A DNA stretch of 32,000 nt, taken from Acaryochloris marina MBIC11017. Lineage in GTDB: Bacteria > Cyanobacteriota > Cyanobacteriia > Thermosynechococcales > Thermosynechococcaceae. Positions 9,171 through 29,949 of the stretch are shown in pieces. The stretch lies in assembly GCF_000018105.1 (NCBI RefSeq), contig NC_009925.1:3720001-3752000 (forward strand), read 5' to 3'. Position numbers and translations under genes: made by a program. The notes beneath the pieces were generated by a model. The model had not been told where the DNA came from. It did no database searches and saw nothing but the letters and a program-made list of their open reading frames with translations. The stretch's first letter is position 1, and every line of letters begins with the position of its first letter.

Positions 9171-9180
9171 GTTGAATCTG

Positions 9181-9960: not shown

Positions 9961-10004
9961 CCTTCCTCAAGGGGACGTTGCCCGCTCATATCCCTTGAGG
10001 AAGG
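9961..10004 (-). terminator. 13-bp perfect inverted repeat between the small secreted-protein gene and chlM (possible terminator or chlM leader structure)
   Basis: ccttcctcaaggg (9961-9973) and cccttgaggaagg (9992-10004) flank an 18-nt loop. The U-tail on the minus strand is weak. Confidence 0.35.
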
Positions 10005-10106
10005 ATCAGGATTGCAGGGGTAGGCAATTCGCTAAGGCTCACCTAGGTCATCTAAGGTTTGAGGGATAACATTGTGGATGTTAGCGCTGGCTTCTACCTC
10101 AGGCCT

Positions 10107-10481: not shown

Positions 10482-10617
10482 CAGCAAAAACTCAACAGAA
10501 GTATTGATTTATATCTTGACTTGTATCACAGTCCATACCCAGATTGGCTTAACCTAAACGTACCCTCAATATTTTTTCAACTATTGAGGGGCAATGTGAA
10601 ATGGCTGCTTAAGTCTA

Positions 10618-15760: not shown

Positions 15761-16192
15761 TTAGACCAGGAGGCGAGTGAAGGCAGCTTGATAATACATG
15801 CTTGTCGTAGGTTCTCCTGTGGGAACCAGAAACAAGCTAAAGCGCCCCAGCTGACGATGCTGAATCTGATAAGTCCCTTGAGGTAAAGATTGGCCTTGGG
15901 GGTCTCGAAAAATAAGCGAAAATTGCTCCAACTGTTGGGACTGTCCAAGATCATCGACTTGCTCTAGCTGGAGGTGCAGCTGCTCTTCTCCTTCGGTGAA
16001 GACTTGAAATGTTTTATCCTTGAGGGTCTCAAAAGTAGAGCAATGCATCTGGCTCAAAGATGGATTGCTGGAATTCAATGTCTTAGCCCAGGTGTGAGAG
16101 TTTTGTTTAGTACCCAGGGGCAAGAAAGAAGTTCCAACTGTGATGAAAGTGGTGCCAGAGAATAAAAGAAAATGTCGTCGGGAAATACTCAT
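15761..16192 (-). CDS. Small Tat-exported protein (143 aa), paralog of the ORF at 17122-17433
   Basis: ATG at 16192 gives MSISRRHFLLFSGTTFITVG, a canonical S-R-R-x-F-L twin-arginine signal. The C-terminal ~50 aa align with the 17122 ORF (22 of 48 identical by hand; shared TYQ.QH..LG...FLVP......YY.A.F). The track start at 16216 is TTG. Confidence 0.65.
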   Translation of the reverse strand: MSISRRHFLLFSGTTFITVGTSFLPLGTKQNSHTWAKTLNSSNPSLSQMHCSTFETLKDKTFQVFTEGEEQLHLQLEQVDDLGQSQQLEQFSLIFRDPQGQSLPQGTYQIQHRQLGRFSLFLVPTGEPTTSMYYQAAFTRLLV

Positions 16193-16484
16193 AGCAGTAG
16201 ACTGATATCCATTCAACGCATAAAAATTTTTACTTCAAGCATTGGCCTGAAGATAATTGTTGCGGCCATTAAACATGAGTTTTTGTGTGCAATAGCTTCA
16301 CTCATATTTTATTGGCTGAAGCAAAATTGTAATCCTTGTAGCTAATTATAGAGCTTCACTTCAGAATAGAAATTAAGAAATAAGTAGTTTTAGGTGCATG
16401 CAAATAATTCATCTTATATAAAATAAAAAGCCTATCAGTTGAAGATATTTTAGAGGAAAATATTACGGCTTTTAGCAGGTGATT

Positions 16485-16961
16485 ATGCATTTGTCTATCG
16501 ACTTTCGTCCAATATGTGATGACGATCTCAATTATTTAAAGCAAATCTATGCAAGCACTCGTGCAGAAGAATTGCAGGTCTTATCCTGGAGTCAGGAAGA
16601 GAAGGAGATCTTCTTGCAGAGACAGTTTCAGGCCCAGCACCAATATTATCAGGCTCAGTTTAGAGAGGCTGAATATTTGATGATTTTGGAGGGAAATCAG
16701 CCAATTGGTCGCTTATATGTCGACCGACGCCCTGATGAGATTCGAATTATTGATATTGCTATTTTACCTGCCTATAGAGGACAAGGAATTGGTTCATCGC
16801 TACTACAGCAAATCTTAGCTGAAGGGCAGTGCTCACATAAATCCGTCAGGATTCATGTTGAGCAAAATAATAGAGCTTTAAAGTTATACCAACGTCTTGG
16901 GTTCCAAAAGAAATCTGAGAATGGTGTTTATTTTTTGATGGAATGGATGCCTAATTCTTAG
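16485..16961 (+). CDS. GNAT family N-acetyltransferase (158 aa) in an AT-rich setting
   Basis: ILPAYRGQGIGSSLL (acetyl-CoA motif A) and ALKLYQRLGF are present. The track start at 16479 is GTG, so I use ATG at 16485. Confidence 0.8.
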   Translation: MHLSIDFRPICDDDLNYLKQIYASTRAEELQVLSWSQEEKEIFLQRQFQAQHQYYQAQFREAEYLMILEGNQPIGRLYVDRRPDEIRIIDIAILPAYRGQGIGSSLLQQILAEGQCSHKSVRIHVEQNNRALKLYQRLGFQKKSENGVYFLMEWMPNS

Positions 16962-17121
16962 CGAAAATATATTTATAAGACAGCAGTTTTGGAGTGATTA
17001 TATTCATTTTTGATAGAAAAATAATGACTTTATAAACATAAGATAGAAAGACCTGTCTTGTGAGTGATTGAGGAGCTGTTAACGGTTAATAAAGATGACG
17101 TTATAGGTGCAAAGTGAGGCG

Positions 17122-17433
17122 ATGAGACTAGCAGAATTAACACAATCACAATTTTCAGACTATTTAGGGGATGCGTTCCGAATCGAAGGAGAATTGGAGG
17201 CATGCCTGAACCTTCAGTTGATTGAGGCGACCCATCTATCATCAGGACGCCATACGAAGTCCAACGGTCAACGTCCAGAACCTTTTGCTTTAGTTTTTCA
17301 AGGACCGCAAACTAGCCCTTTAGATCAAGCGACTTATCAGCTACAGCACGAGCATTTGGGAGAGCTGCCTGTGTTCTTGGTGCCTATTGATCAGGATGAA
17401 GAAGGGGTCTACTACGAGGCAATTTTTAATTAG
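17122..17433 (+). CDS. Small signal-less protein (103 aa), paralog of the ORF at 15761-16192, directly upstream of the tail-collar triad
   Basis: It shares FALVFQGPQ...ATYQLQHEHLGELPVFLVPI....GVYYEAIFN with the Tat-signal paralog. GTG at 17107 is an alternative start. Confidence 0.62.
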   Translation: MRLAELTQSQFSDYLGDAFRIEGELEACLNLQLIEATHLSSGRHTKSNGQRPEPFALVFQGPQTSPLDQATYQLQHEHLGELPVFLVPIDQDEEGVYYEAIFN

Positions 17434-17501: not shown

Positions 17502-18002
17502 ATGTCAGAACCGTTTTTAGCAGAAATACGAATAGTAGGCTTTAATTTTGCTCCGCGAGGTTGGGCTTTTTGCGATGGGCAAATTTTGCCGATTAATCAA
17601 AATCAATCACTTTATTCACTTTTAGGTACGACCTATGGCGGAGATGGTCGCACATCTTTTGCCCTGCCTGATTTGCGGGGGCGAACACCGATTCATGTCA
17701 GCAGTAGCCATCTCCAGGGACAAAAGGGAGGTGAAGAAACCCATACCTTGGCTGGGAATGAAATGCCACAACATACCCATCAACTTCAAGCCTCATCTAG
17801 TGCTGCGAATAACCCTATTCCGACTGGCCATGTGTTGGGAGAGGTCTCATCTGGGTTGTATCACAGCAATACTAACTCTGTAGCACTGCTTGCGGGCACA
17901 GTGACTAATGTTGGAGGTGGTCAGGGACACGATAATATGCAGCCCTATCTCGCTGTTAACTTCTGCATTGCCTTACAAGGTCTTTTCCCGTCCAGAAATT
18001 AG
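17502..18002 (+). CDS. Phage-tail-collar-domain protein, paralog 1 (166 aa)
   Basis: The start is MSEPFLAEIRIVGFNFAPRGWAFCDGQILPINQNQSLYSLLGTTYGGDGRTSFALPDLRGR, the hallmark of the Collar domain (Pfam PF07484 by recollection). HTH lies at 17772-17780. The C-terminus is GGGQGHDNMQPYLAVNFCIALQGLFPSRN. ATG at 17502 is preferred over the upstream alternative start in the track. Confidence 0.85.
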   Translation: MSEPFLAEIRIVGFNFAPRGWAFCDGQILPINQNQSLYSLLGTTYGGDGRTSFALPDLRGRTPIHVSSSHLQGQKGGEETHTLAGNEMPQHTHQLQASSSAANNPIPTGHVLGEVSSGLYHSNTNSVALLAGTVTNVGGGQGHDNMQPYLAVNFCIALQGLFPSRN

Positions 18003-18017
18003 TAGGAGATATCACTT

Positions 18018-18536
18018 ATGTCAGAACCTTTTGTTGGTGAGATCCGTATGTTTGCAGGCAATTTTGCCCCGCGTGGATGGGCGTTCTGTGATGGGCAACT
18101 GCTGGCTGTGTCCCAAAATGATGCTTTATTTTCTTTGCTTGGCACGATTTATGGCGGTGATGGTCGAACTACCTTTGGATTACCCGATCTGCGGGGACGT
18201 ATTCCCATTCATGCAGGGACAGGTCCAGGGCTTTCCCAGCGTAGGCTAGGTGCGAAAAGTGGTGTTGAGCAAGTCACCTTGACTGCAAATCAGCTACCCA
18301 GCCACACTCATACATTGCAAGCCTCAACTGACTTAGCTGATCAAACGGCACCACAGGGCAACGTCATAGCCCAGCCCTCAACACTGTCTCTCTATGCCCA
18401 AGAACCTATTGATACCAATATGAATGTTGCTGCCATTACCAGTGTGGGAGGGAGTCGAACGCACTCCAACCTACAGCCATTTGTATGTATCAATTTCATT
18501 ATTGCTTTGTTGGGTATCTACCCATCCCGTAACTAA
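18018..18536 (+). CDS. Phage-tail-collar-domain protein, paralog 2 (172 aa)
   Basis: It starts 15 nt after paralog 1, with an AGGAGA RBS. The first 60 aa are 44/60 identical to paralog 1 and 48/60 to paralog 3 (hand count). HTH lies at 18303-18311. Confidence 0.88.
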   Translation: MSEPFVGEIRMFAGNFAPRGWAFCDGQLLAVSQNDALFSLLGTIYGGDGRTTFGLPDLRGRIPIHAGTGPGLSQRRLGAKSGVEQVTLTANQLPSHTHTLQASTDLADQTAPQGNVIAQPSTLSLYAQEPIDTNMNVAAITSVGGSRTHSNLQPFVCINFIIALLGIYPSRN

Positions 18537-18546
18537 GGAGTGTTAC

Positions 18547-19065
18547 ATGTCCGAACCTTTTATTGCCGAAATTCGCATTTTTGCAGGCAACTTTGCACCA
18601 CGAGGTTGGGCCTTTTGTGATGGGCAATTGTTACCTGTTTCCCAAAACACCGCGCTCTTTTCTTTAATTGGCACAACCTATGGCGGTGATGGTCGTAGCA
18701 CTACGGCATTGCCTAATCTACAAGGACATGCGCCGATGCATCCAGGACGTGGTCCAGGTTTAACGTCTCGTAGTCTAGGTCAGAAGGGCGGAGCAGAAAT
18801 AATTACACTGTCTGAAGCTCAAATGCCTAACCATACCCATACGTTAAGAGCAACTTCGGAAACTGCTGAGCTTCAAGAACCTGGAACAGATCGGGCACTG
18901 GCTCGTTCTTCTCGGGGACTTGCCTATCAATCTGCTGCGACTAACCTCGTTACTATGGCTGACCTCCCTAATGCGGGAGGGAGCCAATCCCATAACAATA
19001 TGCAGCCCTATTTAGCTGTCAATTTTATTATTGCTTTGCAAGGGCTCTATCCATCGCGCAGCTAA
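18547..19065 (+). CDS. Phage-tail-collar-domain protein, paralog 3 (172 aa)
   Basis: It starts 10 nt after paralog 2, with an AAGGAG RBS. HTH lies at 18832-18840. The track ORF from 18424 is an upstream extension overlapping paralog 2. Confidence 0.88.
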   Translation: MSEPFIAEIRIFAGNFAPRGWAFCDGQLLPVSQNTALFSLIGTTYGGDGRSTTALPNLQGHAPMHPGRGPGLTSRSLGQKGGAEIITLSEAQMPNHTHTLRATSETAELQEPGTDRALARSSRGLAYQSAATNLVTMADLPNAGGSQSHNNMQPYLAVNFIIALQGLYPSRS

Positions 19066-19084
19066 TTGTCTAGTTTTTAGACTG

Positions 19085-19119
19085 TTGGTGGTTAGCTTCA
19101 AACTAGCCACCAATTTTTG
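19085..19119 (+). terminator. Rho-independent terminator of the tail-collar operon, in the 90-bp gap to the convergent giant gene
   Basis: ttggtggttag (19085-19095), 7-nt loop, ctagccaccaa (19103-19113; one G-U pair), then TTTTT (19114-19118). Confidence 0.7.
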
Positions 19120-19155: not shown

Positions 19156-22100
19156 TTAAGGAGGGGTGGGGCAAGAAACACCACCACTGAAGGTGAGGCC
19201 GGCATCAATAGTGGTGTTGTCAGCCACACCATTATTGCGTCCTGTTAAATAGGTTTCTACATCTGTTGCACTGGTCCCCAATCCTGTGAAGCCCGGCAAA
19301 ACAAACGAATCTGTGCTGCTTCTCAATCTCAAGCGAATATCAATAACCCCGGCTTCTGTCGTGATTGTGTTAGCTAGCGCACCAGCCCCGCCAATATCAG
19401 CGCAAGCATTTATGTCGTCAGTTGTCGAGCCTGAGGCACCAGATTGAAAGAAAATGCCTGGTAGGCCAAATATATTGGATTGTGTCAACGTGTTACCGGT
19501 GATTGTTGCATTGAATGTGTTGTCTCCATCTCTAGCAAATAGTCTAACAACTTCATTAAAGCCATCATTGACGAGTGTGTTATCAGTAATTGTGATTGTC
19601 AATGTTCCGTTACCCTGAGCAATTGCTTCAATAGGTTCACCGAAATTATTCGTATCGGTCAGACTAATAAAATTGTTGTCAATATTGCCCTGTAAGCGTC
19701 CAGATGTTGTCGATTGACTACCCAGTAGCACGTTAATCCCATCAGAAGCTGCATTGCTAAAGAGCACGGGATTACCTGCTGTTCCGTGATTTCGGATGTC
19801 GAAATTTACGACTGCATTTAGATTCGACGTAATCTGACCAAACGTATTTGTTCCAGTGATGGTGTTTCCATCTAACACCACATCAGCTGTCCCTTGATCC
19901 GTGACATTAATGATGAAAGCGCTGGCAGGAATATTCTGAATGGTGTTATTGGCAATATTGGCCGTTGTTAAGACTGAAGTTCCCGTCCCTTCGTAGACAA
20001 AGGCACTGTCTTGCGTATTATTCGAGATAGTATTGCCTGTTAAGGTCAAGCTGCTAAGCGTGCCCGAACTATTGCGAATATCAATGCCAAAGGATTGACT
20101 ACTATCGATGAGACTATTGGTAATGGATACTGCGCCAGTGACTCCATTGAGAGGTGTTGTTGTATCACCAAACTGAATTCCAGATTCTCCGTTAGCATTG
20201 CCGTTACGGAGAATGCGCCCGCTGGTCAGGGTAAACCCATTCACGTTGTCGCCAAAAATACCATCATCGCCGCCATCGGTGACATCTATAAAGCTGAGTG
20301 AAATATTTTGGGCATTACTCAAACGGATGCCTGCCCCTGTGCTGTTATCAATGAGCCCTCCCGATCCTAAGGTTGCTCCATCTCCTGTCACATTGAAACC
20401 GCCACTACCAACATTATTTAAATTGATGCCATTAGTTCCACCATTTGCTGAAATGCTCTGAAAAGTGACTCCACTTGTACCTATCGTGGTGTTGGCTATA
20501 TTGAGCGCTGTGGTTGCCCCGGAATTAATTGTGTTGGCTGTACCCGTAACATTCACTGTGCCCCCGTTGGTGGCATTGAAGCCTATGCCTGTAGTGGTAT
20601 CGATATCTAAATTGCTACCTGCAAAATTAATCGTAGCGCCAGTATTGCTGGTCAAATTGACCGCATTGACCGTCCCAGAATTCAACGTGAGGGGACCCGT
20701 AATGGCGACCGTACCCCCTGTCTTATTCGCCACATTGACATTGCGAGCGCTGAAAGCTGTTCCAGTTCCACGGGTAATAGTGATATTACCCGTCCCACCA
20801 TTCGCGTTGAGTAATGCCCCAGCAACATTGATAGTGTTGTTCTGGGCGGTCACATTCGTCGTCAGGTTCGCAACATTGAAGACCGTAGCATTGGCACTAA
20901 CATTTTGAATGACATTGTTCTGAATCGTGATACCCGTGCCATTACTGAACCCAGCGGTGGCATTATCAATATCGAAAATGTTAGCCGTGCCAGTGCTGTA
21001 TTCAAAGGTATTGTGCTCGATGGTATTGTTGCCCCCTAGTGTCAAGACATCGCTACCCGCTGTTGAGTTGGTGATCACGGCAGAGTTGGCTGTGATAGTC
21101 CCCCCGACTGTACTGAACGTGCCTAAAATATTGGCCGGTTTTATAGACCCAAACGATACCGAGTTAGTGTTGGCAAAACCTGTAATGCTTTGACCTGTCG
21201 CCAGGGTAAAGCCTGTAGCTCCCTGGGCCGTTACATCAATATTGCCGATAAAGGCAAAGGTTTCGGTTCCGGCCAATAGATCCGCCGCAGCTACAGAGAT
21301 CGTACTGATGGATTGACTTAGGCCAAAGCTCCCAGCGGTGAGCGTGCCGCCATTCTGACTGACAAAGGTGGCTGAGGCTGCACCCGCAGGGAAATTCGCT
21401 GCATCGCCTGCACCAAACGTGACATCTTCAAAATCAAAACTGGAGGCGGCTAGGGTGCCATTCCCGGCATCTACGGTGAAGGCTCCTGCTTGAGCGTTGA
21501 CATTAATGCTGGACCCGGTATCACTGGCAGATTCACCATCGCCAAAGGTAAACTGAACCGCCGCAGTATTATCGATGACGACCCCTCGGTGCAGATCCGT
21601 AATACTGCTGGATGGGCCTGTTGCTGGTGTGGTTTGGGTCCCTAGATTGACAGTCTGATTGCCAGCCAATGCGGTTAAATCAACCCCGATAGAGTTAGTC
21701 GAGGTATCAGGACCAGAAATGGCGACTGAGTTATAGGCCGCAGTCCCTGATAAGGTGGCTCCATTGAAGTTGATGCCGACCTGATTGGCGGCAGCCCCCA
21801 CATCTGTAATTGTGGTGGTACCGAACGTTGTTGCAGCGTTCGTGCCGACATAGCGAATGCCACTCGTGCTGGCGGTTGTCCCCAGGTCGATATTGACGGT
21901 GCCAAAGGTGAGGGTGCCACTATTGCTGGTTAAGGCAATGGCATTACCTGTGGGGCTGTTAACGGTTGTAGTGCCAGTGACTGCAAAGGAACCCGTCAAA
22001 GTGTTGAGGGAAATACCACTGGCTCCTGCTGTAGAAGAGACGGTATCAACAGTAATGTTAGACGCAATTCCATTGAGGTTGATAGCCTGACCAGATGTTG

Positions 22101-25100
22101 TGGTGACGGACTCATCCCCTGCTGTAGCCGCTACACCCACTGTGCCGCCAGTGGTGGCATTCAAGCCTGTGCCTGTGGTGGTATCAATGTTTAAACCACC
22201 ATTGAAATTGATAGTGCTGCCTGTATTGTTGGTGAGGTTAATGCCAGGGGCAGTACTGGTATTGGCAGTAACTAAGCCATTAAAAGCGGTGGTGTTTCCG
22301 GTTTTGTTGTTGATATTGACCGCACTGGCTGCATTATTTTGGGTAATGGTGCCAGCGTAGGTGACGGAGGCGGTGCTGGTGTCTTCATTAAACGCAGTTC
22401 CTGATGGGCTGGTGATGGACGTATTGGCACTAAAGGTGAACGTGCCCGCAGACCCATTGAGGATATCAATTCCAGCATCACCACCATTCAGAGTTGTAGT
22501 GCCGTTGAAGTTGTAGGTGCCATCAGCATTATTAAACTGCAGGCCATTGCCATTCGTGGCATTAATGTTGGTTGTGTTGGCAAAAGTGATGGTGCCTGTA
22601 TGCCCACTTTGAACATTAACGGCGCTAACATTATTGGCCTGAGCAATCGAACTGGTGCCGTTATAGTTGATATTGGCTGCACCACCGTCAACATTCAAAC
22701 TAATGCCAGTGGGACTGGTGATAGTTGTGTTTGCAAAGGTGAATGTGCCTGCAGACCCATTGAGGATATCAATTCCAGCATCACTGCCATTCAGGGTTGT
22801 GGTGCCGTTGAAGTTGTAGGTGCCATCAGCATTGTTAAACTGCAAGCCATTGCCATTCGTGGCACTTAGCATTCCAGTTTGGAAGGTGACCGTTCCTGTA
22901 GAATGGCCGCCCGTTACATTGACCGTGCTGGCATTATTGGCCTGAGCGATACTGCCGCTATAGGTAATGCTGGCCGTACCCCCATTGAGATTGAATGCTG
23001 TACTTGTGGGATTGGTGATGGAGCTAGCGGTATCAAAATCAAAGGTGGCGTTGCCTCCGCTGATATCCACGCCAATACCGGTGGCGTTGGTGATGTCTAA
23101 ATTATCGATGTTGATGGTGCCAGCGGCATTGGTAAAGACGACCCCCCCAGCTAGGGATACATTCTGGAGGGTAGTTGTCCCGGTAGCATTTGTGATTTGA
23201 AGCGATGTCCCCGTGGTGCCCGTACTGGTGATATTAGAGAGCATCGTATCCGCAGCATTAACAATGACATCAGTGTTATTGCCGCTAAAGGTGACATTGT
23301 TGAGGGTGGTATTGGTCGAAGGTGTAATTTCAATCCCAGTAGTGAAATTCTGGATGGTTGTGTTTTGAATGGTGGTATTGTTTGCACCTGTTAAACCTGC
23401 GATCGCACGGGTAGCCGTACTACTACCATCGAAGATCACATTCTGAATCGTATTGTTATTCGCCAGGGTGATAACGTTATTCCCAGCGCTAGTACTGAGG
23501 ACCGCAGCACCATTCCCCGTGGGATCTGTGATGTTGGTACTTGGGAAAGTACCTAATACATTAGCGGGTTGCTGAAAACCAAAGGTTTGACCATTACCAA
23601 ACCCATCGATGGCATCGCCAGTACCCAGGGTAAAGCTATTGCCTGCCGCCGCCAGCAGCGTATCAAAGTTATAGGTAGTGCCATTGTTGATAAAGACAAA
23701 GGTGTTGACGGTAGCCAAATTCGCTTGAGTTTGAGCAGCAGCAACACTAGCGGCTTGAGTTGGAGAGCTACCATTCCCCGTCCCCGTATCAGAGACAAAG
23801 AAGAGCTGCCCCGCGACCCCGGCTCCACCTGGGAAGTTGGGATTGCCCGTAAAGGTGACATCGTTAAAGTTATAGGTGCCACTAGCAGGATCTAAACCGA
23901 CAGCCTGCACTGTAAAGCCACCCGCTGTGACGCTAATTGTACTTGCTTGATCGACGGTATCTTCACCATCCCCAAAGATAAAGTTGACGTTTGCCGTTGT
24001 TCCGACGGCTTGACTGGAAGACAGCTCTACTCCAATTTCGACATTGGCGATGGAACTGGGAGTGTCCGTACCTGGGTTCATTGAGTCACCCACCTGGATC
24101 AGACGATTGCCGAGGGTGGAGGACAAGTCGATACCCACAGACCCTGCAGTTCCCGTTCCTGCAATGTTCAAAGACGTAAACCGGACCCCACCTACTGGAT
24201 CAGACCCAGCAAAATCGACTCCCGTATCGTCTCCGAAATTCGTAATGCTGGTGTTGCCAAAGGCAATAGCTCCATTATTAACCCCTTCAATATCAATACC
24301 CGCTGCATCAATCACACGAGGCGTGAATAATGGTGTGGGGACAATCGGCGCTCCAGGGTTACTGATATTGGTCGTGCCAAAGGTAACGTTGCCTGGATTA
24401 TTAGAAATAAGAATGCCATCTTCAACAGTGGTGTTGATAGTGGTAGTTCCTGTGGCGGTGAAGGTTCCTGTATTCCCTGTCAATTGAATGCCTACAGTGG
24501 GTCCTCCGTTAGTCAGGACATTACCTGTGGCTGGAGTGATTGTAGAGGGGGCAATACTAATTGAATTGAAAGCAAAGTTCGCGCTGGAGTTGCTAATATT
24601 TATCCCTTGCGTTGTTCCTGCACTAGGATTAGGACTAAAGAATTGTGCACCTATCTCTTGAGAAATTTCTGGTGCGGTAATAGAAGTTGCCCCAGTGACC
24701 GTGAATGAGCCTGTGACTTGATTAGCCACAAATCCACTGTCAAATCCATCCCCATTTAAATTTAGACTAGATAGAGTGATTTCAGAATTGACCTGGTTAA
24801 GGTCAATTTGGCCCGCATCGACATTGCCATCTAAGATCCGAATCGTCAAATCAGCACTACTCGCATTGGTTAAGATGGCGGCATTGGTTACGTTGGCATT
24901 GAATTGGTCAAAGCGAATCGTTCCTCTACTGCTCCGGCCAGTATCAAGTGTTGCTGCAGTAAAGCCAAAAGAAGTCCGTTCCGTGGGACTGCCAAGGGTT
25001 AAGGTACCCCCCTGTACTTCTTGCAAACCCGCCGTGTTGGGATCTGCATCAAACACGACCCCGTCAAACCGGAAGCCGTTCGCCATAAAAGCGGGATTGA

Positions 25101-28100
25101 AGGCTGTGGAATCTCCTTGCAGCGTGTTGTTACTAAAATCGGTAACGATTAAGCCTTCTGTAATGCCCTGAATAACAACCCCCTGATCTTCTGTTTTGAA
25201 GATGCTGTTGGCAATGGATAGTACTAACTGATCGTCATCACGGGTTTCTGCAAACACCCCAAAATCCAAGCCTCCAATACTGGCAGTGGCATCATGAATG
25301 ATAGAAATGCCGTCGATTGCCACCGTGAGGTTGCGAGTCGTTGTAACATCATTCTGAATAATAGAAAAGCTATTTTGATTGCCGCCCACTGGTGAGCTGA
25401 GGGTGCCGCCATTCACGGTAAATGCGCCATCTAAATTACTGAGGGTTATCCCAGAACCAGAGGTTGACCGAGTGGCGCTAATGGAATTGAAGGTTGTATT
25501 CACTGTACTATCGGCAATATTGACGGCCAGACCATCCGTAGTGACGACGGTGTAGGTGCCTGTAGAGCCCATTGCCCCCACATTGACCGTACTGCCTGTG
25601 ACATTGAATCCAATGGCTGTCGTTGTATCTATATCTAGTCCGCCTGTAAAGCTGACCGTGCTTCCCGCATTACTTGTTAGATTCACTCCAGTTGCCGTAC
25701 CGGTATTGGCGGTGACTAAGCCATTAAAGGTGGTGGTGCCTCCAGTCTTGTTGTTGATATTGATGGCACTAACCGCATTATTTTGAGTAATCGTGCCGGT
25801 ATAGGTAACAGTTGCAGTACTTGTATCTTCGTTGTAGGCAATTCCGGTTGGATTCGTGATGGCGGTATTGGCAAACGCAAAGGTGCCTCCAGAGCCATTG
25901 AGAATATCAATACCCGCATCCCCGCCATTGAGCGTAATCGGACTATTAAAGGTGTAAGTTCCATCAGCGTTGTCAAACTGCAACCCATTGCCGTTAGTGG
26001 CATTGATGGTGGTGGCCGCATCAACCGTCAAGGCACCCGTGTGTCCCCCGCTAACGTTGACTGTGGCTAACGGATTGCCGTTGTTGAGGGTGGAGCCTGT
26101 AATATTGACGTTTACAGTGCCGCCATTAAAGTCCACCGTTGGCAACGTAGACTGTTGAATCGTGGCTGTTCCCGCTAGACCTGTACCAGAAACGGCTGGC
26201 CCATTACTGCCATTATCCAGAACGACTCCATTGATAGTGTTGTTATTGGCGAAGGCCACGGTTGCAGGCGTTCCTGCTCCCGTGGTGGTCAAGGTAGGGA
26301 CTCCGTTACCAGTCGTGTCTGTAATTGACCCTGTTGAGGCATTCAGTAGCACATTGCCGGGACCAGCAAACGGAACATTGATTGTGGATCCGTTGCGGAA
26401 ACTGAGAATTTGTTGATTAGCAGTCAGGTCAAAAGAGCCCCCTGCATTGATGGCATCAATGACATCTGTTCCAGATGTATTCACCAAGATAAAAATATCG
26501 GCCGTTGGGCTGGCCTCTGCAGCGGTAATACTGCCTGGATCTGTAATCGTGGCTCCTGAGCCATTCGTATTCTGATCAACGAAGAATAACTCAGGGAACG
26601 TAAACCCAAGTCCCGGACTGCCTGCAAAGGCAACATCTCGGAAGTTATAGGTGCCATTTGTCCCCACAGCACTGGCATCAATGGGAGTCGTCGCTGCAAT
26701 CGTACTGGGAGCATCCACCGTCAACTCCCCATCCCCAAAGATAAAGTTGGCATTGGCATTATTCAATTGCACCCCAACACTCACCCCCGCAATCGAACTG
26801 GGCGTATCTCCATTGATATTGGCTGGATCACCTAAGGTAATCACCCGATTACCCGTGGTATTCGTCAGGTCAATCCCCGTGCCCACATTGCCCGTATTCG
26901 TAATCGCCACCGTGGGAGCCGTGACGCCGACATTCGCCCCCGCCAGATTAATCCCTGTTCCCGTAAAGCCATTAATCGTCAATGCCCCCAAGTTAAACAC
27001 TGTGGTGGCATCATTAATTCCTGAAAGATCCAAGCCATCTAACCCAGCGTTGGTGATGGTCACGGGACCAAAGGTATAGGTCCCTGTACTATTGGTCGCT
27101 AAGAACCCATCTCCAGTGGTGTTGGCAATCGTAGTGGTTCCAGATACCCCCACCGAACCTGTTACTGTATCCAGGTTGATGCCATTCGTTCCCCCAGTCG
27201 AAGACACTGAATCAAAGGTGATGTTGGCCGCTATATTGTTGAGATTCAGAGCAGTGCCACTGGTCGTGGTGACCGATTCATCCCCACTTGTGGCAGTGAC
27301 ATTGACGGTGCCGCCATTGGTGGCGTTAAATCCAGTCCCTGTGGTGGTATCAATATCTAAGCCCCCATTAAAGGCAACAGTATTCCCGGTATTGTTGGTC
27401 AGGTTCACTCCAGGAGCAGTACTAGTATTAGCCGTCACCAACCCATTAAAGGTGGTTGTCCCTCCTGTCTTATCCGCAATATTGACCGCACTGGCTGGAT
27501 TATTTTGGGTAACCGTACCGTTATACGTAACGGTTGTGGTTCCACCGGCAACATTGAATGCTGAACTCGTGGCATTGGTAATGGAGCTGGTGTCGTCAAA
27601 AGTGAAGGTGGCATCACCGCCTGTAATATCGATACTGTTATCGCCAGCATTGGTGATATCGACATTAGTGGCCGTAATCGTTCCTGATGGGTTGGCAAAC
27701 TGGAGACCGTCTCCACCTGAATTGGAGATATTGACATTGGTGAGGGTGGTGGTGCCTGTGGCATTGAGAATCTGAATGGCGGGACCCGTGGCGTTGGTGC
27801 TCGCAACGTTGGCTAAGGTCGTATTGGCGGCATTGACGATGGCATCTGTAGCGTTGTTGTTGAAGACCACATTGTCGATGGTGGTGTTGGTGGAGGGGGT
27901 GATCTGAATGCCAGCGATGGTGAAGTTCCCGAGGCTGCTGTTGCGGATGGTGGTGTTGGTGGCTCCTGTAACGGCAGCTATTCCCCGAGGAGCTGTATTT
28001 TGACCATTGAAGGCAAGACCATCGATGGTGTTGTTATTGGCGAGGGTGAGGACGTTGTTGTTGGCACCATTGACCAGTTGGGGTTGTCCGGCATCGAAGA

Positions 28101-29949
28101 TGGTGACTGAGCCCAGGTTGGGAACAGTGAAGACAAAGTTGGGAGTGGTGCCGACCCCTAGTGCTTGTTGTCCCTCCTTTAGGGAGAGGGTTCCACCGGT
28201 TCCGGTTTGGGTATCGATGGCTCCAGCATCGTTGAGAAAGAAGAGAATATCGTTGGCTTGGGTAAGAGCGCTGGCCTGAGCAATAGTTAAAGGACTGCTT
28301 TGGGTTCCACTGCCAGCGGTGCCATCTCCATCGATGAAGAAAATATTGATGGGGAGTCCAGTGGCGGGGTTAAGGGCTACTTGGGAATTTGAGGCAATAA
28401 TCTGAGGTCCAAGGGGAGAAAGGGAACCTTGACCCGCTGCCGCTGCCTGGAGTTCAGCCATAGAAATAGGACGATTGATGTCCTGGGCAAAGGTCGTGAT
28501 TTCGTACTCGCGCTCAATCGGGCGACGGGCTAATCGCTGGGTAAGGGTGAGGGGCTGAGAGCGTTTAGGGCCTCCAAAGGGAATCCCCAGACGAACAAAG
28601 CCTTCGAGTTCTGAGCCTCGGGTTTCATCAAAGCGGAAACGGCCGCCAACTTGTAACAAGCCTCCGTTCATCCCTAAAGGATCTTGAACTTCGAGTTGGG
28701 TACGGGCCATGGGGCCATCGATGCTGAGGGTTTCGCGACTGTCAAAGAAGAAGTAGCCTCCAAACAGGCCGAGACTGACTTTGTCATTGAAGTGATGACG
28801 ATGGCCTGCTTCAAAGTCAAACCCGGCCAGGGCTCGTTCACGAGCTTCTAGAGTAAGGGTTTGTTGGACAATGTTGGTGCCCAGGCCATTCGCTCTCGGC
28901 TGAATCCCTAAAACACCGTTGATGGTGCGTTGACCGACGACATTAGGGTTACTGCCAGGGAGATAGCCGTTAACTCTAAACTCGAATTTCTTGTTGACGA
29001 GTTCAGCCCCAAGGCTGCCTTGGTGATACTGAAAGCCGTTTTCACTCCGTTTAGAATCGTAGAAGGCATGGGTGCCGAGAATCCAAGGGTTCTCGTTCGA
29101 GGTGTTGAGGATACGGCGATAGGCGAGACCAAGGTTGCCCAGGAAGGTTTCGTTACTGCCTCCTTCAAAATGAACATCAGCAAAGGCGAAGGATTGATCA
29201 TCCTGCCAGAAGGGAAGTCGGAGGTTGATCCCTCCAAATTGACGACGGGTACTGCCACGGAATTCGGTATCGACAAAGTAGGGAATGCCTAGGTTGGTAG
29301 AAGTGTCTGCTTCTGTATTGGTGTCGTTAGAAGTATCTGATTTCTCGCCAGTTTTGGTGTCCGTAGGGACATTAGGCTCTGCTTGGACTAAGCGGTGGGA
29401 TGTTGCTGCAGGAAGATTAGATGGAGTCGTTCCTTTATTGATCGCGACAACTTGTGGTGCTGTTGTCCATCCTGCTTCTGCCAACGTGCGAGGCGGAGAG
29501 GCTGTAAAGGGTGGATTGGTGTCAATCGTTGGAGGAAGCTGGTCGATGACAGGCTGATCCGTCAGGTCCTTGGGTGAAGGCTGGGGGTGTTGGTCAGATT
29601 CTAAAGGAGCTGTTAGGGATGCTTCAGGACGCTGTGTGATGCTCTCATCCTGGGGTAAAGGAGATAGAGAATGTTCGGGAACGGTGTCAGCAGAGTCAAG
29701 CGCCAATTGAAAGTCGCTGGGTGGAGAGATGTAGGCTGCAGTAATCTCCGATTCTGCCGAAGGTGGTGCCTCTAATGGTGCTGGATCAGTACCGATATTC
29801 CCTAGAGGCTCGGTTGCTTGGGGTAGGGCAGCCGAGATCTCTTCGGCCAGCGCCGCCATGGGCCATACCCCTGCGATCAGCAAACTAAGTGCTAAGGATT
29901 TCCCAAGGTGAGATCGCACCTTGGGATCAATACTCATCCAGCCAGCCAT
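19156..29949 (-). CDS. Giant (3597 aa) outer-membrane inverse-autotransporter-like adhesin with a parallel beta-helix repeat passenger
   Basis: A single uninterrupted ORF with an ATG start and GAGG 7 nt upstream. It has a signal peptide, a Pro-rich spacer, a barrel signature and about 3100 aa of T/N/G-rich beta-helix-type repeats. See the sub-features and findings. Confidence 0.85.
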   Translation of the reverse strand: MAGWMSIDPKVRSHLGKSLALSLLIAGVWPMAALAEEISAALPQATEPLGNIGTDPAPLEAPPSAESEITAAYISPPSDFQLALDSADTVPEHSLSPLPQDESITQRPEASLTAPLESDQHPQPSPKDLTDQPVIDQLPPTIDTNPPFTASPPRTLAEAGWTTAPQVVAINKGTTPSNLPAATSHRLVQAEPNVPTDTKTGEKSDTSNDTNTEADTSTNLGIPYFVDTEFRGSTRRQFGGINLRLPFWQDDQSFAFADVHFEGGSNETFLGNLGLAYRRILNTSNENPWILGTHAFYDSKRSENGFQYHQGSLGAELVNKKFEFRVNGYLPGSNPNVVGQRTINGVLGIQPRANGLGTNIVQQTLTLEARERALAGFDFEAGHRHHFNDKVSLGLFGGYFFFDSRETLSIDGPMARTQLEVQDPLGMNGGLLQVGGRFRFDETRGSELEGFVRLGIPFGGPKRSQPLTLTQRLARRPIEREYEITTFAQDINRPISMAELQAAAAGQGSLSPLGPQIIASNSQVALNPATGLPINIFFIDGDGTAGSGTQSSPLTIAQASALTQANDILFFLNDAGAIDTQTGTGGTLSLKEGQQALGVGTTPNFVFTVPNLGSVTIFDAGQPQLVNGANNNVLTLANNNTIDGLAFNGQNTAPRGIAAVTGATNTTIRNSSLGNFTIAGIQITPSTNTTIDNVVFNNNATDAIVNAANTTLANVASTNATGPAIQILNATGTTTLTNVNISNSGGDGLQFANPSGTITATNVDITNAGDNSIDITGGDATFTFDDTSSITNATSSAFNVAGGTTTVTYNGTVTQNNPASAVNIADKTGGTTTFNGLVTANTSTAPGVNLTNNTGNTVAFNGGLDIDTTTGTGFNATNGGTVNVTATSGDESVTTTSGTALNLNNIAANITFDSVSSTGGTNGINLDTVTGSVGVSGTTTIANTTGDGFLATNSTGTYTFGPVTITNAGLDGLDLSGINDATTVFNLGALTINGFTGTGINLAGANVGVTAPTVAITNTGNVGTGIDLTNTTGNRVITLGDPANINGDTPSSIAGVSVGVQLNNANANFIFGDGELTVDAPSTIAATTPIDASAVGTNGTYNFRDVAFAGSPGLGFTFPELFFVDQNTNGSGATITDPGSITAAEASPTADIFILVNTSGTDVIDAINAGGSFDLTANQQILSFRNGSTINVPFAGPGNVLLNASTGSITDTTGNGVPTLTTTGAGTPATVAFANNNTINGVVLDNGSNGPAVSGTGLAGTATIQQSTLPTVDFNGGTVNVNITGSTLNNGNPLATVNVSGGHTGALTVDAATTINATNGNGLQFDNADGTYTFNSPITLNGGDAGIDILNGSGGTFAFANTAITNPTGIAYNEDTSTATVTYTGTITQNNAVSAININNKTGGTTTFNGLVTANTGTATGVNLTSNAGSTVSFTGGLDIDTTTAIGFNVTGSTVNVGAMGSTGTYTVVTTDGLAVNIADSTVNTTFNSISATRSTSGSGITLSNLDGAFTVNGGTLSSPVGGNQNSFSIIQNDVTTTRNLTVAIDGISIIHDATASIGGLDFGVFAETRDDDQLVLSIANSIFKTEDQGVVIQGITEGLIVTDFSNNTLQGDSTAFNPAFMANGFRFDGVVFDADPNTAGLQEVQGGTLTLGSPTERTSFGFTAATLDTGRSSRGTIRFDQFNANVTNAAILTNASSADLTIRILDGNVDAGQIDLNQVNSEITLSSLNLNGDGFDSGFVANQVTGSFTVTGATSITAPEISQEIGAQFFSPNPSAGTTQGINISNSSANFAFNSISIAPSTITPATGNVLTNGGPTVGIQLTGNTGTFTATGTTTINTTVEDGILISNNPGNVTFGTTNISNPGAPIVPTPLFTPRVIDAAGIDIEGVNNGAIAFGNTSITNFGDDTGVDFAGSDPVGGVRFTSLNIAGTGTAGSVGIDLSSTLGNRLIQVGDSMNPGTDTPSSIANVEIGVELSSSQAVGTTANVNFIFGDGEDTVDQASTISVTAGGFTVQAVGLDPASGTYNFNDVTFTGNPNFPGGAGVAGQLFFVSDTGTGNGSSPTQAASVAAAQTQANLATVNTFVFINNGTTYNFDTLLAAAGNSFTLGTGDAIDGFGNGQTFGFQQPANVLGTFPSTNITDPTGNGAAVLSTSAGNNVITLANNNTIQNVIFDGSSTATRAIAGLTGANNTTIQNTTIQNFTTGIEITPSTNTTLNNVTFSGNNTDVIVNAADTMLSNITSTGTTGTSLQITNATGTTTLQNVSLAGGVVFTNAAGTINIDNLDITNATGIGVDISGGNATFDFDTASSITNPTSTAFNLNGGTASITYSGSIAQANNASTVNVTGGHSTGTVTFQTGMLSATNGNGLQFNNADGTYNFNGTTTLNGSDAGIDILNGSAGTFTFANTTITSPTGISLNVDGGAANINYNGTSSIAQANNVSAVNVQSGHTGTITFANTTNINATNGNGLQFNNADGTYNFNGTTTLNGGDAGIDILNGSAGTFTFSANTSITSPSGTAFNEDTSTASVTYAGTITQNNAASAVNINNKTGNTTAFNGLVTANTSTAPGINLTNNTGSTINFNGGLNIDTTTGTGLNATTGGTVGVAATAGDESVTTTSGQAINLNGIASNITVDTVSSTAGASGISLNTLTGSFAVTGTTTVNSPTGNAIALTSNSGTLTFGTVNIDLGTTASTSGIRYVGTNAATTFGTTTITDVGAAANQVGINFNGATLSGTAAYNSVAISGPDTSTNSIGVDLTALAGNQTVNLGTQTTPATGPSSSITDLHRGVVIDNTAAVQFTFGDGESASDTGSSINVNAQAGAFTVDAGNGTLAASSFDFEDVTFGAGDAANFPAGAASATFVSQNGGTLTAGSFGLSQSISTISVAAADLLAGTETFAFIGNIDVTAQGATGFTLATGQSITGFANTNSVSFGSIKPANILGTFSTVGGTITANSAVITNSTAGSDVLTLGGNNTIEHNTFEYSTGTANIFDIDNATAGFSNGTGITIQNNVIQNVSANATVFNVANLTTNVTAQNNTINVAGALLNANGGTGNITITRGTGTAFSARNVNVANKTGGTVAITGPLTLNSGTVNAVNLTSNTGATINFAGSNLDIDTTTGIGFNATNGGTVNVTGTANTINSGATTALNIANTTIGTSGVTFQSISANGGTNGINLNNVGSGGFNVTGDGATLGSGGLIDNSTGAGIRLSNAQNISLSFIDVTDGGDDGIFGDNVNGFTLTSGRILRNGNANGESGIQFGDTTTPLNGVTGAVSITNSLIDSSQSFGIDIRNSSGTLSSLTLTGNTISNNTQDSAFVYEGTGTSVLTTANIANNTIQNIPASAFIINVTDQGTADVVLDGNTITGTNTFGQITSNLNAVVNFDIRNHGTAGNPVLFSNAASDGINVLLGSQSTTSGRLQGNIDNNFISLTDTNNFGEPIEAIAQGNGTLTITITDNTLVNDGFNEVVRLFARDGDNTFNATITGNTLTQSNIFGLPGIFFQSGASGSTTDDINACADIGGAGALANTITTEAGVIDIRLRLRSSTDSFVLPGFTGLGTSATDVETYLTGRNNGVADNTTIDAGLTFSGGVSCPTPP
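19159..21372 (-). repeat. Passenger super-repeat U4 (aa 2860-3597), with a divergent, more highly charged C-terminal beta-helix and a Cys pair
   Basis: It begins ATFVSQNGGTL...TFAFIGN...LTLGGNNTIE. The distal part has PbH1-like turns (GIRLSNAQNISLSFIDVTDGGDDGIFGDNVNGFTLTSGRILRNG...). Confidence 0.55.
21373..23808 (-). repeat. Passenger super-repeat U3 (aa 2048-2859)
   Basis: It begins QLFFVSDTGTGNGSSPTQAASVAAAQ...TFVFINN...ITLANNNTI and ends ...QFTFGDGESASD...SSFDFEDVTF. Confidence 0.55.
22333..22938 (-). repeat. Tandem duplication of a 303-bp (101-aa) unit inside U3
   Basis: 22442-22562 and 22745-22865 are offset by exactly 303 nt and differ at about 7 of 120 positions by hand comparison. 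The peptides are NATNGNGLQFNNADGTYNFNGTTTLNG[GS]DAGIDILNGSAGTFTF. Confidence 0.75.
23809..26592 (-). repeat. Passenger super-repeat U2 (aa 1120-2047), carrying a unique, more highly charged insert
   Basis: It begins ELFFVDQNTNGSGATITDPGSITAAEA..ADIFILVN...VAFANNNTI and ends ...NFIFGDGEDTVD...GTYNFNDVTF. Confidence 0.55.
26593..28350 (-). repeat. Passenger super-repeat U1 (aa 534-1119): beta-helix domain with its own N-terminal cap-like segment
   Basis: It begins INIFFIDGDGTAGSGTQSSPLTIAQA..ANDILFFLN...LTLANNNTI and ends ...NFIFGDGELTVD...GTYNFRDVAF. Confidence 0.55.
28570..29292 (-). other. Inverse-autotransporter (intimin/invasin family) beta-barrel domain signature (aa ~220-460)
   Basis: NLGLAYRRIL....WILGTHAFYDSKRSENGFQYHQGSLGAELVNKKFEFRVNGYLPGS...ERALAGFDFEAGH follows the IAT_beta pattern as I recall it (NlGlGyR, GvNaFYD, R.glGaE, NgYlPls, Gydle). 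Alternating hydrophobic strands continue up to RLGIPFGG. Confidence 0.62.
29293..29844 (-). other. Pro/Ser/Thr/Asp/Glu-rich low-complexity spacer (aa 36-219), presumably periplasmic
   Basis: Composition is visible in the translation (PAPLEAPPSAESE..., HPQPSPKDLTDQPVIDQLPPTIDTNPP...). I did not recognise LysM or SLH motifs. Confidence 0.5.
29845..29949 (-). other. Sec signal peptide of the giant protein (aa 1-35)
   Basis: MAGWMSIDPKVRSHLGKSLALSLLIAGVWPMAALA/EE has a basic n-region, a hydrophobic core and an A-x-A cleavage site. Confidence 0.6.

Follow-up and report, generated by a model that had tools for sequence, protein, structure and literature searches.

The window analyzed here, a 32,000-nt stretch of the genome of Acaryochloris marina MBIC11017 (contig NC_009925.1, positions 3,720,001 to 3,752,000), carries two genes encoding small related proteins, a GNAT acetyltransferase gene lying between them, three tandem genes encoding phage tail collar domain proteins and, convergent with this collar operon, the gene of a giant surface protein (Table 1). 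The window flanks are occupied by housekeeping genes, among them those for cobalamin and chlorophyll synthesis, SOD, FUR, peroxiredoxin and a Rieske protein. Apart from the collar genes, no sheath, tube, baseplate or other phage gene is present in the neighborhood, and a prophage or tailocin tail module was therefore rejected, as was a defense system, given that none of the six cassette proteins has a PADLOC match. Alternative start codons exist for the ORFs of 143 aa (an in-frame TTG upstream, at 16216) and of 103 aa (a GTG at 17107), and in the GNAT ORF an ATG lies two codons past the GTG start. Around the divergent spacer the GC content is 0.373 (positions 16001-17000), and the spacer itself displays promoter-like hexamers on both strands, but without enrichment over shuffled sequences. 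An RNA element in the AT-rich spacers was discarded, as no match in the window attains the gathering score of an Rfam family.

Table 1. Features of the locus, with positions counted from the first letter of the window.
Feature	Position	Strand	Evidence
Tat-form DUF6916 protein, 143 aa	15761..16192	-	PF21880, E 1e-25, residues 51-138
Predicted twin-arginine signal peptide, aa 1-36	16085..16192	-	Read from sequence
AT-rich divergent intergenic region between the Tat-DUF6916 and GNAT genes	16193..16478	.	Sequence read
GNAT acetyltransferase, 160 aa from the GTG start	16479..16961	+	PF00583, E 1.7e-16
Signal-less (bare) DUF6916 protein, 103 aa	17122..17433	+	PF21880, E 1.3e-27, residues 6-102
Collar subunit 1, orthology group 'L', N-terminus MSEPFLAEIR	17502..18002	+	PF07484, E 5e-29
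Collar subunit 2, orthology group 'G', N-terminus MSEPFVGEIR	18018..18536	+	PF07484, E 2e-30
Collar subunit 3, orthology group 'A', N-terminus MSEPFIAEIR	18547..19065	+	PF07484, E 4e-27
Terminator-like hairpin closing the collar operon, 12-bp stem followed by a T run	19084..19114	+	
Giant surface protein, 3597 aa, convergent with the collar operon	19156..29949	-	ORF; weak Pfam Beta_helix match

The original prediction had noted both small ORFs, which are present exactly at these positions, and the 68 nt that separate the plus-strand copy from the ATG of the first collar gene at 17502, and had described a shared C-terminal block for which it named no family. The count of 22 identical positions out of 48 in this block was reproduced by hand, and the similarity is real (BLASTP E 1e-16); it is not restricted to the C-terminus, however, because the BLASTP alignment, with 35 of 101 residues identical, covers the whole domain of about 100 aa. 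A profile search supplied the family: the two ORFs are true paralogs, and each belongs over its full length to Pfam DUF6916 (PF21880), the 143-aa protein scoring 90.1 bits over profile positions 3-91 of 91 and the 103-aa protein 96.1 bits over positions 1-91 of 91, against a gathering score of 27 bits. A full-text literature search returned no mention of DUF6916 or PF21880, and nothing combining the tail collar domain with twin-arginine.

This family, with 7707 representatives at E<=1e-3, occurs in two architectures, a bare domain of about 100 aa and a longer form of about 140-180 aa in which a Tat signal precedes the domain. Among the 148 best-scoring representatives, counted without the window's own two clusters, none of the 96 short forms displays an RR motif, and a motif of the type [ST]RRxF[LIV] is found in about 42 of the 52 long forms, 33 of which pass a strict test for RR plus a hydrophobic region. 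The nearest neighbors of Tat forms are themselves Tat forms in 21 of 42 cases, an enrichment that does not amount to a clean split from the bare forms. Within the loci surveyed, Tat forms are seen in diderm lineages only. In the minus-strand copy of the window an n-region of MSI is followed by SRRHFLL (residues 4-10), close to the Tat consensus S/T-R-R-x-F-L-K, and then, as read from the sequence, by an h-region, LLFSGTTFITVGTSFLPLG, and a c-region, TKQNSHTWA/K, after the TWA of which the predicted signal would be cleaved. The N-terminus of this protein, MSISRRHFLLFSG, is unchanged letter for letter in seven orthologs of 58-95% identity, and among 48 long-form relatives R5 and R6 never vary, F8 being kept in at least 90%. 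The Tat motif that had been proposed for the minus-strand copy is thus upheld, and the plus-strand copy lacks a signal, as had also been said. Pfam TAT_signal (PF10518) is matched by 16 of the 48 long-form members, with a best E of 2.5e-4; the window protein has no match to PF10518 at E<=1 and none in NCBIfam either, such models being very short and insensitive.

An AF2 model of the 103-aa protein (pLDDT 84) consists of a short helix and a six-strand beta-barrel; in that of the 143-aa protein a helix and a six-strand barrel are built from residues 46-141, and the pLDDT of residues 1-42 stays under 50. As modeled, the Tat form is the barrel of the bare copy preceded by an unstructured segment, residues 1-42. 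The residues Q105, Y108, H112, Y133 and Y134 are conserved in Tat and bare forms alike, which points to one activity in two compartments. The DUF6916 profile has no match among PDB sequences at E<=10, and a Foldseek search with the model of pLDDT 84 gave nothing significant (best E 0.2 in the PDB and 0.009 in BFVD, TM at most 0.5). Naming a fold family was dropped, as only generic small barrels (PilZ, Hcp, phage neck and tube proteins) were obtained, at TM ~0.4. A phage origin of DUF6916 was likewise dropped, since neither a match in PHROGs nor a relative in viral contigs was found.

Soil, marine and cyanobacterial genomes commonly encode triads of collar-domain 'tail fiber proteins' (COG4675, 'microcystin-dependent protein'), and COG4675 collar proteins have been detected in metaproteomes and exoproteomes; to our knowledge, no function or export route is known for the triads. 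In the exoproteome of Ruegeria pomeroyi a PF07484 protein was detected (PMC4949626). The three collar subunits of the window match PF07484 with 94-105 bits, against a 24-bit cut-off, and contain HTH motifs. Subunit 1 has in addition a weak Gp10_C match, and its HxH motif reads PQHTHQ; in the PDB, subunit 2 matches T4 gp12 and a long tail fiber by sequence, and, judged in this way, the collar subunits are homologous to T4 gp12. Across loci the collar genes fall into three ancient clades, or orthology groups, and each locus holds one member of each, which implies a heterotrimer. The collar triad of virophage DSLV2 has been shown biochemically to be a heterotrimer, and it binds cyanobacterial LPS (PMC12724248). 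All of the 153 distinct collar subunits collected start at the collar domain, with a conserved N-terminal extension in 0/153 and a signal in 0/153, in accordance with the earlier description of the collar proteins as signal-less; position 2 is S, A, G or T in 148, position 4 is P in 145 and HxH is present in 151. As in T4 gp12 and gp37 and in DSLV2, the PF07484 domain is followed by an HxH-containing head, and DSLV2 shares with the cassette the arrangement of three consecutive paralogous collar genes (PMC12724248). Unlike the T4 and DSLV2 proteins, the bacterial subunits begin at the collar domain, the shaft and the virion-attachment part being absent, and their genes are located on chromosomes or megaplasmids among housekeeping genes, with other phage genes absent nearby and with DUF6916, a GNAT and giant adhesins added.

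The GNAT of the window matches PF00583 with 61 bits (cut-off 20.7 bits). Its best NCBIfam match is RimI (TIGR01575), the ribosomal protein S18-alanine N-acetyltransferase, at 56.2 bits; this lies under the 86.4-bit equivalog cut-off, so that the GNAT being RimI itself was ruled out. By sequence, the cassette GNAT best matches RimI, Naa50 and the tandem-GNAT N-terminal acetyltransferases 6wqb and 7wx5, and the closest solved structures are likewise N-terminal acetyltransferases. Small N-terminal residues such as those of the collar subunits are of the type used by RimI/Naa50-like enzymes. The proposal that the GNAT might act as immunity found no support, its nearest characterized relatives being protein N-terminal acetyltransferases. 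An apparent fusion of GNAT and surface protein in one locus (L018) was discarded as a frame artefact after reading of the ORF.

A test set in advance concerned the co-occurrence of this family with collar triads and GNATs in other genomes, and such co-occurrence holds in 36 of the 36 loci with enough flank, spanning seven phyla despite extensive rearrangement of gene order. These loci were retrieved by DUF6916 patterns alone, and metagenome loci were kept if at least 8 kb long. Collar genes and an orthologous GNAT are found in 15 of the 15 genome loci; the 21 metagenome loci likewise all have collar genes (three or more in 17) and the GNAT, 13 of them have a giant protein of at least 800 aa, and 11 have both Tat and bare DUF6916. 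The same cassette is encountered on Pfam-annotated contigs and RefSeq plasmids. DUF6916 is found only within one conserved cassette, in at least seven bacterial phyla, and this cassette is composed of three tandem collar genes, one or two RimI/Nat-like GNATs, DUF6916 and, usually, a giant repetitive surface protein. Across phyla, about one cassette in two contains the pair of Tat and bare DUF6916, A. marina being one example; only the bare form is present in the cassettes of Ruegeria sp. TM1040 and Sinorhizobium meliloti. The bare copy alone is within reach in all three monoderm-type loci (Chloroflexales, Anaerolinea and Actinomycetota) and in 25 plasmid records (23 alphaproteobacterial, plus Comamonas and Azospirillum). 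Collar triads accompanied by a GNAT or a formyltransferase and by a giant protein, and free of DUF6916, occur in Paenibacillus, Deinococcus and Spirosoma, and in one Spirosoma cassette the formyltransferase takes the place of the GNAT.

The two forms of DUF6916 differ in their genomic partners. A collar gene adjoins the Tat copy in 26 of 34 loci versus 10 of 54 for the bare copy (p 1e-7), and a GNAT adjoins the bare copy in 46 of 54 versus 17 of 34 for the Tat copy (p 6e-4), p values that are to be read with the phylogenetic non-independence of the loci in mind, many of them from soil Acidobacteria. The Tat copy is often located directly upstream of the collar genes, in the same operon. In Acaryochloris the cassette responds strongly to far-red light: in two A. 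marina strains the genes most induced by far-red or low light include AM1_3686 (acetyltransferase), AM1_3687 (hypothetical) and AM1_3688-3690 (phage tail collar), and in MBIC11017 they include AM1_3684 as well (PMC11633204). AM1_3684 may be the Tat copy. The order of AM1_3686-3690 agrees with that of the window and of a syntenic contig (L106). Environmental control is also a feature of two operons, of chromosomal or plasmid location, that encode collar-domain proteins with no assigned function, RhiB of rhiABC(D) in Rhizobium leguminosarum (quorum sensing) and MrpB of mrpAB in Microcystis (light). RhiA and RhiC are reported to have no Pfam domain (PMC13133039), and hence the rhi operon has neither DUF6916 nor a collar triad; it also differs from the cassette in having no reported GNAT. 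RhiC as a Tat-form DUF6916 was ruled out on the same grounds.

In about 60-80% of the cassettes, and in different phyla, a giant repetitive surface protein is encoded alongside. That of the window, in which a signal-like N-terminal segment is combined with a beta-helix passenger, is probably an inverse autotransporter: PF11924 (IAT_beta) is undetected in it at E<=0.01 and is recorded for the syntenic 3675-aa ortholog of L106 and for a neighbor in a further locus (L023). The domain types of the cassette giants vary, comprising beta-helix/inverse autotransporter, cadherin-like, DUF7933/DUF11, FG-GAP and HYR, and a docking domain common to them was discarded, as only repeat-type similarities were found.

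The original prediction had offered two roles, a chaperone or adaptor and Tat 'hitchhiker' export of a pre-folded collar complex; its interpretation is partly supported, both roles being putative. In order to accommodate these observations, we hypothesize that DUF6916 binds the collar trimer, the bare copy working with the GNAT and the Tat copy carrying the folded trimer over the membrane, a reading that is offered tentatively and whose chances we judge to be somewhat short of even. The DUF6916 domain would thereby constitute a module binding the collar heterotrimer. The three signal-less subunits would fold in the cytoplasm into a 1:1:1 heterotrimer around the HxH metal site, in a manner comparable to T4 gp12 and gp37. 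The bare copy, genomically coupled to the GNAT, would then hold or present the trimer during acylation by this enzyme, whose likeliest target would be the conserved mature collar N-terminus [S/A]-x-P-[F/Y]. The Tat copy, genomically coupled to the collar genes, would bind the finished, folded trimer and direct it to TatABC by 'hitchhiker' export, and the trimer would finally take up its role in the envelope, binding glycans or receptors, probably in concert with the neighboring giant adhesin.

The established Tat hitchhikers include hydrogenase-2 HybO/HybC and the DMSO reductase DmsA/DmsB of E. coli. As in these systems, the cassette combines one small signal-bearing protein with signal-less partners encoded in a cluster, and all 153 collar subunits are signal-less; likewise, an oligomeric cargo would fold, and probably bind metal, in the cytoplasm. 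In contrast, the cargo would be a phage-tail-fiber-like heterotrimer instead of a redox enzyme, the putative carrier is a domain of about 100 aa without a recognized fold, and a signal-less paralog, paired with an acetyltransferase, would stay behind. A hitchhiker's carrier is also expected wherever the cargo is, and against this a Tat form is within reach in only about half of the cassettes and some triads are without any DUF6916. Since about half of the cassettes have the bare copy alone within reach, Tat carriage is not the general export route. A complex of Tat-form DUF6916 and collar subunits in the cytoplasm is putative, with indirect support from the gene adjacency in 26 of 34 loci. In diderms, Tat delivers to the periplasm only, and such a destination fits poorly with a receptor-binding trimer expected on the surface, which speaks against the hypothesis favored here. 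Phage tail-fiber assembly chaperones, namely T4 gp57A/gp38 and lambda Tfa, offer another comparison, as DUF6916 is also a small protein beside tail-fiber-type genes whose role cannot be read from its sequence; it has, however, no sequence or fold similarity to them and is not found in phages, and we know of no phage tail-fiber chaperone with a Tat-exported paralog.

Alternatively, the Tat-form DUF6916 might be exported alone, as a periplasmic counterpart of the bare copy (a holdase, an inhibitor or an 'immunity' factor for the collar trimer), with the trimer leaving by lysis, vesicles or another secretion system and no co-export taking place. The restriction of Tat forms to lineages with a periplasm and the equal conservation of residues in both forms are in agreement with this, as are the many cassettes that have no Tat copy, although collar-family proteins are seen extracellularly. 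In addition, the existence of DUF6916-free triads means that trimer export cannot depend on DUF6916 in general. We nevertheless regard export alone as unlikely, as the cassette encodes no other route for subunits that are uniformly signal-less, and the linkage between the Tat copy and the collar genes, often directly upstream and in one operon, is tight and specific. Furthermore, the collar proteins have no detectable toxic domain, leaving nothing obvious to neutralize, and a PADLOC match is absent.

A different possibility is that DUF6916 binds a small ligand or a metal and is not an adaptor, either as a metallochaperone for the HxH site or as a binder of the GNAT substrate or product, with the Tat copy exported together with its bound cofactor. 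Tat is the usual route of cofactor-loaded proteins, a polar set of residues (Q, Y, H, YY and E) is conserved on the small barrel, and the bare copy is coupled to the GNAT and not to the collar genes. The top fold matches also include ligand-binding barrels of the PilZ type, but these are weak and not significant (E at least 0.2, TM ~0.4). With no recognizable metal motif, a single conserved His, and the absence of the family away from collar triads left unexplained unless the ligand is trimer-specific, we consider this role quite unlikely. Still less is to be expected of DUF6916 as a chaperone or docking factor of the giant surface protein, with the collar trimer and the GNAT as parallel accessories of the same adhesin. 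A client crossing both compartments would explain cytoplasmic and periplasmic paralogs, and the giants do flank most cassettes across phyla; they are, however, heterogeneous in domain type, share no identified docking domain and are missing from a substantial minority of loci, while collar genes are present in 100%, which makes such a role very unlikely. Finally, the possibility that the two proteins do not function together, with an RR motif that is no working Tat signal or with genes that are neighbors through shared island ancestry, is scarcely credible even though the window protein lacks a Pfam TAT_signal match, for R-R-x-F is (nearly) invariant in 48 divergent long forms and followed in each by a hydrophobic stretch, the co-occurrence is complete across seven phyla with much rearranged gene order, and the cassette genes are co-induced in Acaryochloris.

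The hypothesis of a trimer matured and exported with the help of DUF6916 may be set in a wider reading, in itself doubtful, according to which the cassette is a pathway, widespread and so far overlooked, in which bacteria domesticated the tip of a phage tail fiber as a heterotrimeric surface lectin. DUF6916 would then mature the trimer in two steps, the cytoplasmic form presenting it to an N-terminal acyltransferase and the Tat form subsequently exporting the folded, metal-bound trimer by piggyback, to work with the giant adhesin.

What is new here is the name of the family, the recurrence of Tat and bare forms across phyla and the neighbors specific to each copy. The COG4675 triads are now placed in a fixed cassette with an acetyltransferase, a family known only as a DUF and giant adhesins, and the cytoplasmic and Tat forms of DUF6916, with their different genomic partners, give rise to a testable hypothesis of export and maturation. 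If the wider reading is true, PF21880 and the bacterial COG4675 triads would gain a function, and the trimer would be the first non-redox, phage-derived hitchhiker cargo of the Tat pathway; the hitchhiker step, if it holds, would extend Tat piggyback export past redox enzymes.

The two small ORFs, the GNAT between them and the collar genes lie where the original prediction had placed them, as both an ORF listing and a reading of the sequence itself confirm. The 143-aa ORF could start earlier, at an in-frame TTG at 16216, and 68 nt separate the 103-aa ORF from the first collar gene. The proposed paralogy of both proteins, based on a C-terminal block for which the count of 22 identities in 48 positions is correct, extends over the whole domain (BLASTP, 35/101 identities, E 1e-16). 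Both match Pfam PF21880 (DUF6916) end to end, with E values of 1e-25 (143 aa) and 1.3e-27 (103 aa), which supplies the family name missing until now; the literature searched held no mention of DUF6916 or PF21880. An exhaustive profile search returned 7707 representatives. AlphaFold predicts the same fold, a short helix and a six-strand barrel, for the twin-arginine (Tat) form and the signal-less (bare) form, the latter with a mean pLDDT of 84.

Features of the window and of compared loci
Feature	Position	Strand	Remarks
Fe/Mn superoxide dismutase	4913-5644	minus	catalytic domains from residue 47
Rieske [2Fe-2S] protein	15092-15562	minus	N-terminus MDRRTFLSWVGVGTLASSLPVVLAAC
Tat-form DUF6916 ORF	15761-16192	minus	143 aa, N-terminus MSISRRHFLLFSG
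GC dip	16001-17000		0.373
GNAT gene	16479-16961		between both small ORFs
Bare DUF6916 ORF	17122-17433	plus	103 aa
Collar triad	17502-19065		first start at 17502
Strong hairpin	19084-19114
Giant ORF	19156-29949	minus	3597 aa
L010, upstream ORF	4528-4917	plus	129 aa, Tat motif DRRQFLRVVFISASAALTPLL
L018, apparent GNAT fusion	8453-11212	plus	probably two genes
L019, hydroxylase and sulfotransferase	5481-7991
L079, Tat-motif protein	1449-2462	minus	about 336 aa, MISDRRSFLRVGSLLVCG
L095, Tat-motif protein	1359-2369	minus	about 336 aa, MISDRRSFLRVGSLLVCG
L109, triad without DUF6916	5436-8081		Spirosoma oryzicola plasmid

Related loci were retrieved by DUF6916 peptide patterns alone, so that the retrieval does not bias the test of which other genes accompany the family. 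The suggested association was borne out: collar genes (PF07484), in most cases as a tandem of three, occur together with a GNAT in 15 of 15 genome loci from Cyanobacteria, Verrucomicrobia, Acidobacteria, Chloroflexi, Actinomycetota, Planctomycetes and Proteobacteria, the GNAT being a specific ortholog of that in the window (E 1e-17 to 1e-79). Likewise, the 21 metagenome loci that measure 8 kb or more all carry collar genes (three or more in 17), a GNAT and the bare form; 11 have the Tat form as well, and 13 an ORF of 800 aa or longer. The same gene set is found on Pfam-annotated contigs and on RefSeq megaplasmids of Ruegeria sp. TM1040 and Sinorhizobium meliloti, where the giant neighbors are annotated as cadherin-like, HYR, FG-GAP/Big_3_5, 'choice-of-anchor D' or Ig-like. 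DUF6916 is an obligate member of a conserved cassette, a solid observation that is general across phyla. The dependence is one-way, as DUF6916 loci always have collar genes but collar triads do not always have DUF6916: triads with a giant protein and no DUF6916 occur on plasmids of Paenibacillus and Deinococcus, with a GNAT, and of Spirosoma, with a formyltransferase instead. On the S. oryzicola plasmid this formyltransferase-family gene occupies the GNAT slot, between the triad and a giant cellulose-binding-domain protein, which suggests that N-acylation of some amine is what is conserved. An otherwise typical cassette (L019) has an Asp/Arg hydroxylase (PF05118) and a sulfotransferase (PF13469) between GNAT and DUF6916. 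A GNAT apparently fused to FG-GAP/Big_3_5 repeats in L018 was rejected, given Arg-rich nonsense in mid-ORF and a better ORF in another frame.

The N-terminus of the 143-aa protein had been read as a Tat signal, and residues 4-10, SRRHFLL, indeed fit the consensus S/T-R-R-x-F-L-K; a 19-residue mildly hydrophobic stretch follows, then a c-region with Lys, ending in T-W-A. This N-terminus is identical in seven orthologs, the rest of which is 58-95% identical. Among the 148 best-scoring of the 7707 representatives, with the two clusters of the window excluded, 96 are short forms of about 100 aa, none with an RR motif, and 52 are long forms with an N-terminal extension of 30-60 residues; motifs of the type [ST]RRxF[LIV] occur in about 42 of these 52, and 33 satisfy the strict requirement of RR plus a hydrophobic region. 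An alignment of 48 long forms shows no variation at R-R and at least 90% conservation of the next F; Pfam TAT_signal, a very short model, matches 16 of these and not the protein of the window. The AlphaFold model of the Tat copy gives residues 46-141 a pLDDT of 83-94 and the 42 residues before them less than 50, the appearance expected of a signal peptide and linker. The predicted Tat-type N-terminus of the long form is conserved.

Tat motifs were also observed in other genes. The Rieske gene directly beside the Tat form, syntenic in L001 and in L106 (a contig syntenic with the window), encodes a twin-arginine motif and a lipobox. In an Anaerolinea MAG (L010) a non-DUF6916 ORF with an Asp-box-like SKDGRNW sits directly upstream of the triad, the slot of the Tat form elsewhere, in one operon with the triad and a bare form that follows the GNAT. 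In L079 and L095, cassettes without a Tat form, the Tat-motif protein is divergent from the bare form. Apart from these, the superoxide dismutase of the window has an N-terminal extension ahead of its catalytic domains.

The Tat and bare paralogs have different genomic partners, and conserved polar residues are common to both forms. Counting only copies with called genes on both sides, the Tat form adjoins a collar gene in 26/34, often directly upstream in one operon or divergent, whereas the bare form does so in only 10/54 and adjoins a GNAT in 46/54, often in a GNAT-DUF-GNAT sandwich in which stop and start codons overlap. The p-values from Fisher tests, 1e-7 for collar and 6e-4 for GNAT adjacency, overstate the case because the loci are phylogenetically non-independent. 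The best GNAT matches are RimI, below cut-off, and solved N-terminal acetyltransferases. The GC dip (0.44-0.53 in neighboring kilobases) takes in the GNAT gene and the spacers on either side of it, the divergent one and the one towards the bare DUF6916.

The 54 collar subunits of 18 loci form three ancient clades in a neighbor-joining tree, each with one member from nearly every locus, from which we infer an obligate 1:1:1 heterotrimer, in agreement with the virophage triad, heterotrimeric and LPS-binding by biochemical evidence (PMC12724248). In all 153 distinct subunits the protein starts where the collar domain starts and, as predicted, a signal peptide was found in none; position 2 is S/A/G/T in 148, position 4 is Pro in 145, and 151 contain the tail-fibre HxH motif. 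The collar proteins match T4 gp12, a long tail fibre (PDB) and phage tail PHROGs. A prophage is ruled out, as the flanks are ordinary chromosomal genes and DUF6916 has no PHROG match and no viral-contig relative; PADLOC gave no hit for it either. The three subunits of the window are 70-72% identical to those of the Ruegeria sp. TM1040 megaplasmid (L024, TM1040_RS01850-01860), and subunit 2, the sole subunit searched there, is 75% identical to its counterpart on Tritonibacter mobilis plasmids; these values equal those for an Acaryochloris MAG (71-76%, BLAST), whereas the accompanying GNAT and DUF6916 are only 47% and 36% identical. It looks as if the triad alone had been transferred or replaced across phyla, between cyanobacteria and roseobacters.

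We hypothesize that DUF6916 would bind the collar heterotrimer, that the bare form and the GNAT may cooperate in the cytoplasm, the likely target being the conserved collar N-terminus, and that the Tat form may take the trimer, folded and with its metal, through TatABC. That DUF6916 binds the collar directly in some way is somewhat more likely than not; the full model is a tentative proposal, slightly on the doubtful side. What speaks against it most is the absence of the Tat copy from half of the cassettes and of DUF6916 from some triads, which makes Tat carriage at most a lineage-specific export solution. Alternatively, the Tat copy may be exported solo and serve in the periplasm as a holdase or inhibitor. 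DUF6916 could also have a ligand-binding or metal-binding role. Or it might serve the giant adhesin and not the collar trimer; the giants of related cassettes differ in domain type, and a search for a docking domain common to them found none. The giant of the window has T/N/G-rich beta-helix-like repeats after an N-terminal signal-like segment and is convergent with the collar operon, the hairpin lying between; it is syntenic with an orthologous 3675-aa protein in L106 bearing an inverse-autotransporter barrel.

HybO/HybC and DmsA/DmsB are Tat hitchhiker pairs. The cassette would work in the same way, but differs in one would-be defining feature, since the carrier, the Tat-form DUF6916, is not always present. 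Its collar proteins are true PF07484 members, with phage tips, virophage triads and RhiB/MrpB among their relatives; the rhi operon has no DUF6916. No description of DUF6916 with a collar triad and GNAT was found in the literature searched. We consider the cassette a variant of collar-domain operons, possibly of Tat piggyback export too, rather than something new in kind, since all of its components come from catalogued families and its function is putative.

In two strains of Acaryochloris marina, AM1_3686-3690, an acetyltransferase, an adjacent hypothetical gene and three 'phage tail collar' genes, rank with the genes that far-red/low light induces most strongly; in one of the strains AM1_3684 is induced together with them (PMC11633204). 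This cassette, orthologous to that of the window, belongs to the top 35 gene sets by induction in far-red/low light versus white light and is induced together with PsbU and a phage-tail-like (sheath/baseplate) cluster; the paper gives no explanation for its induction (PMC11633204). The gene order matches the window, and the cassette is co-regulated in one genus. The mechanism is so far inferred, and the cassette hypothesis is clearly testable.
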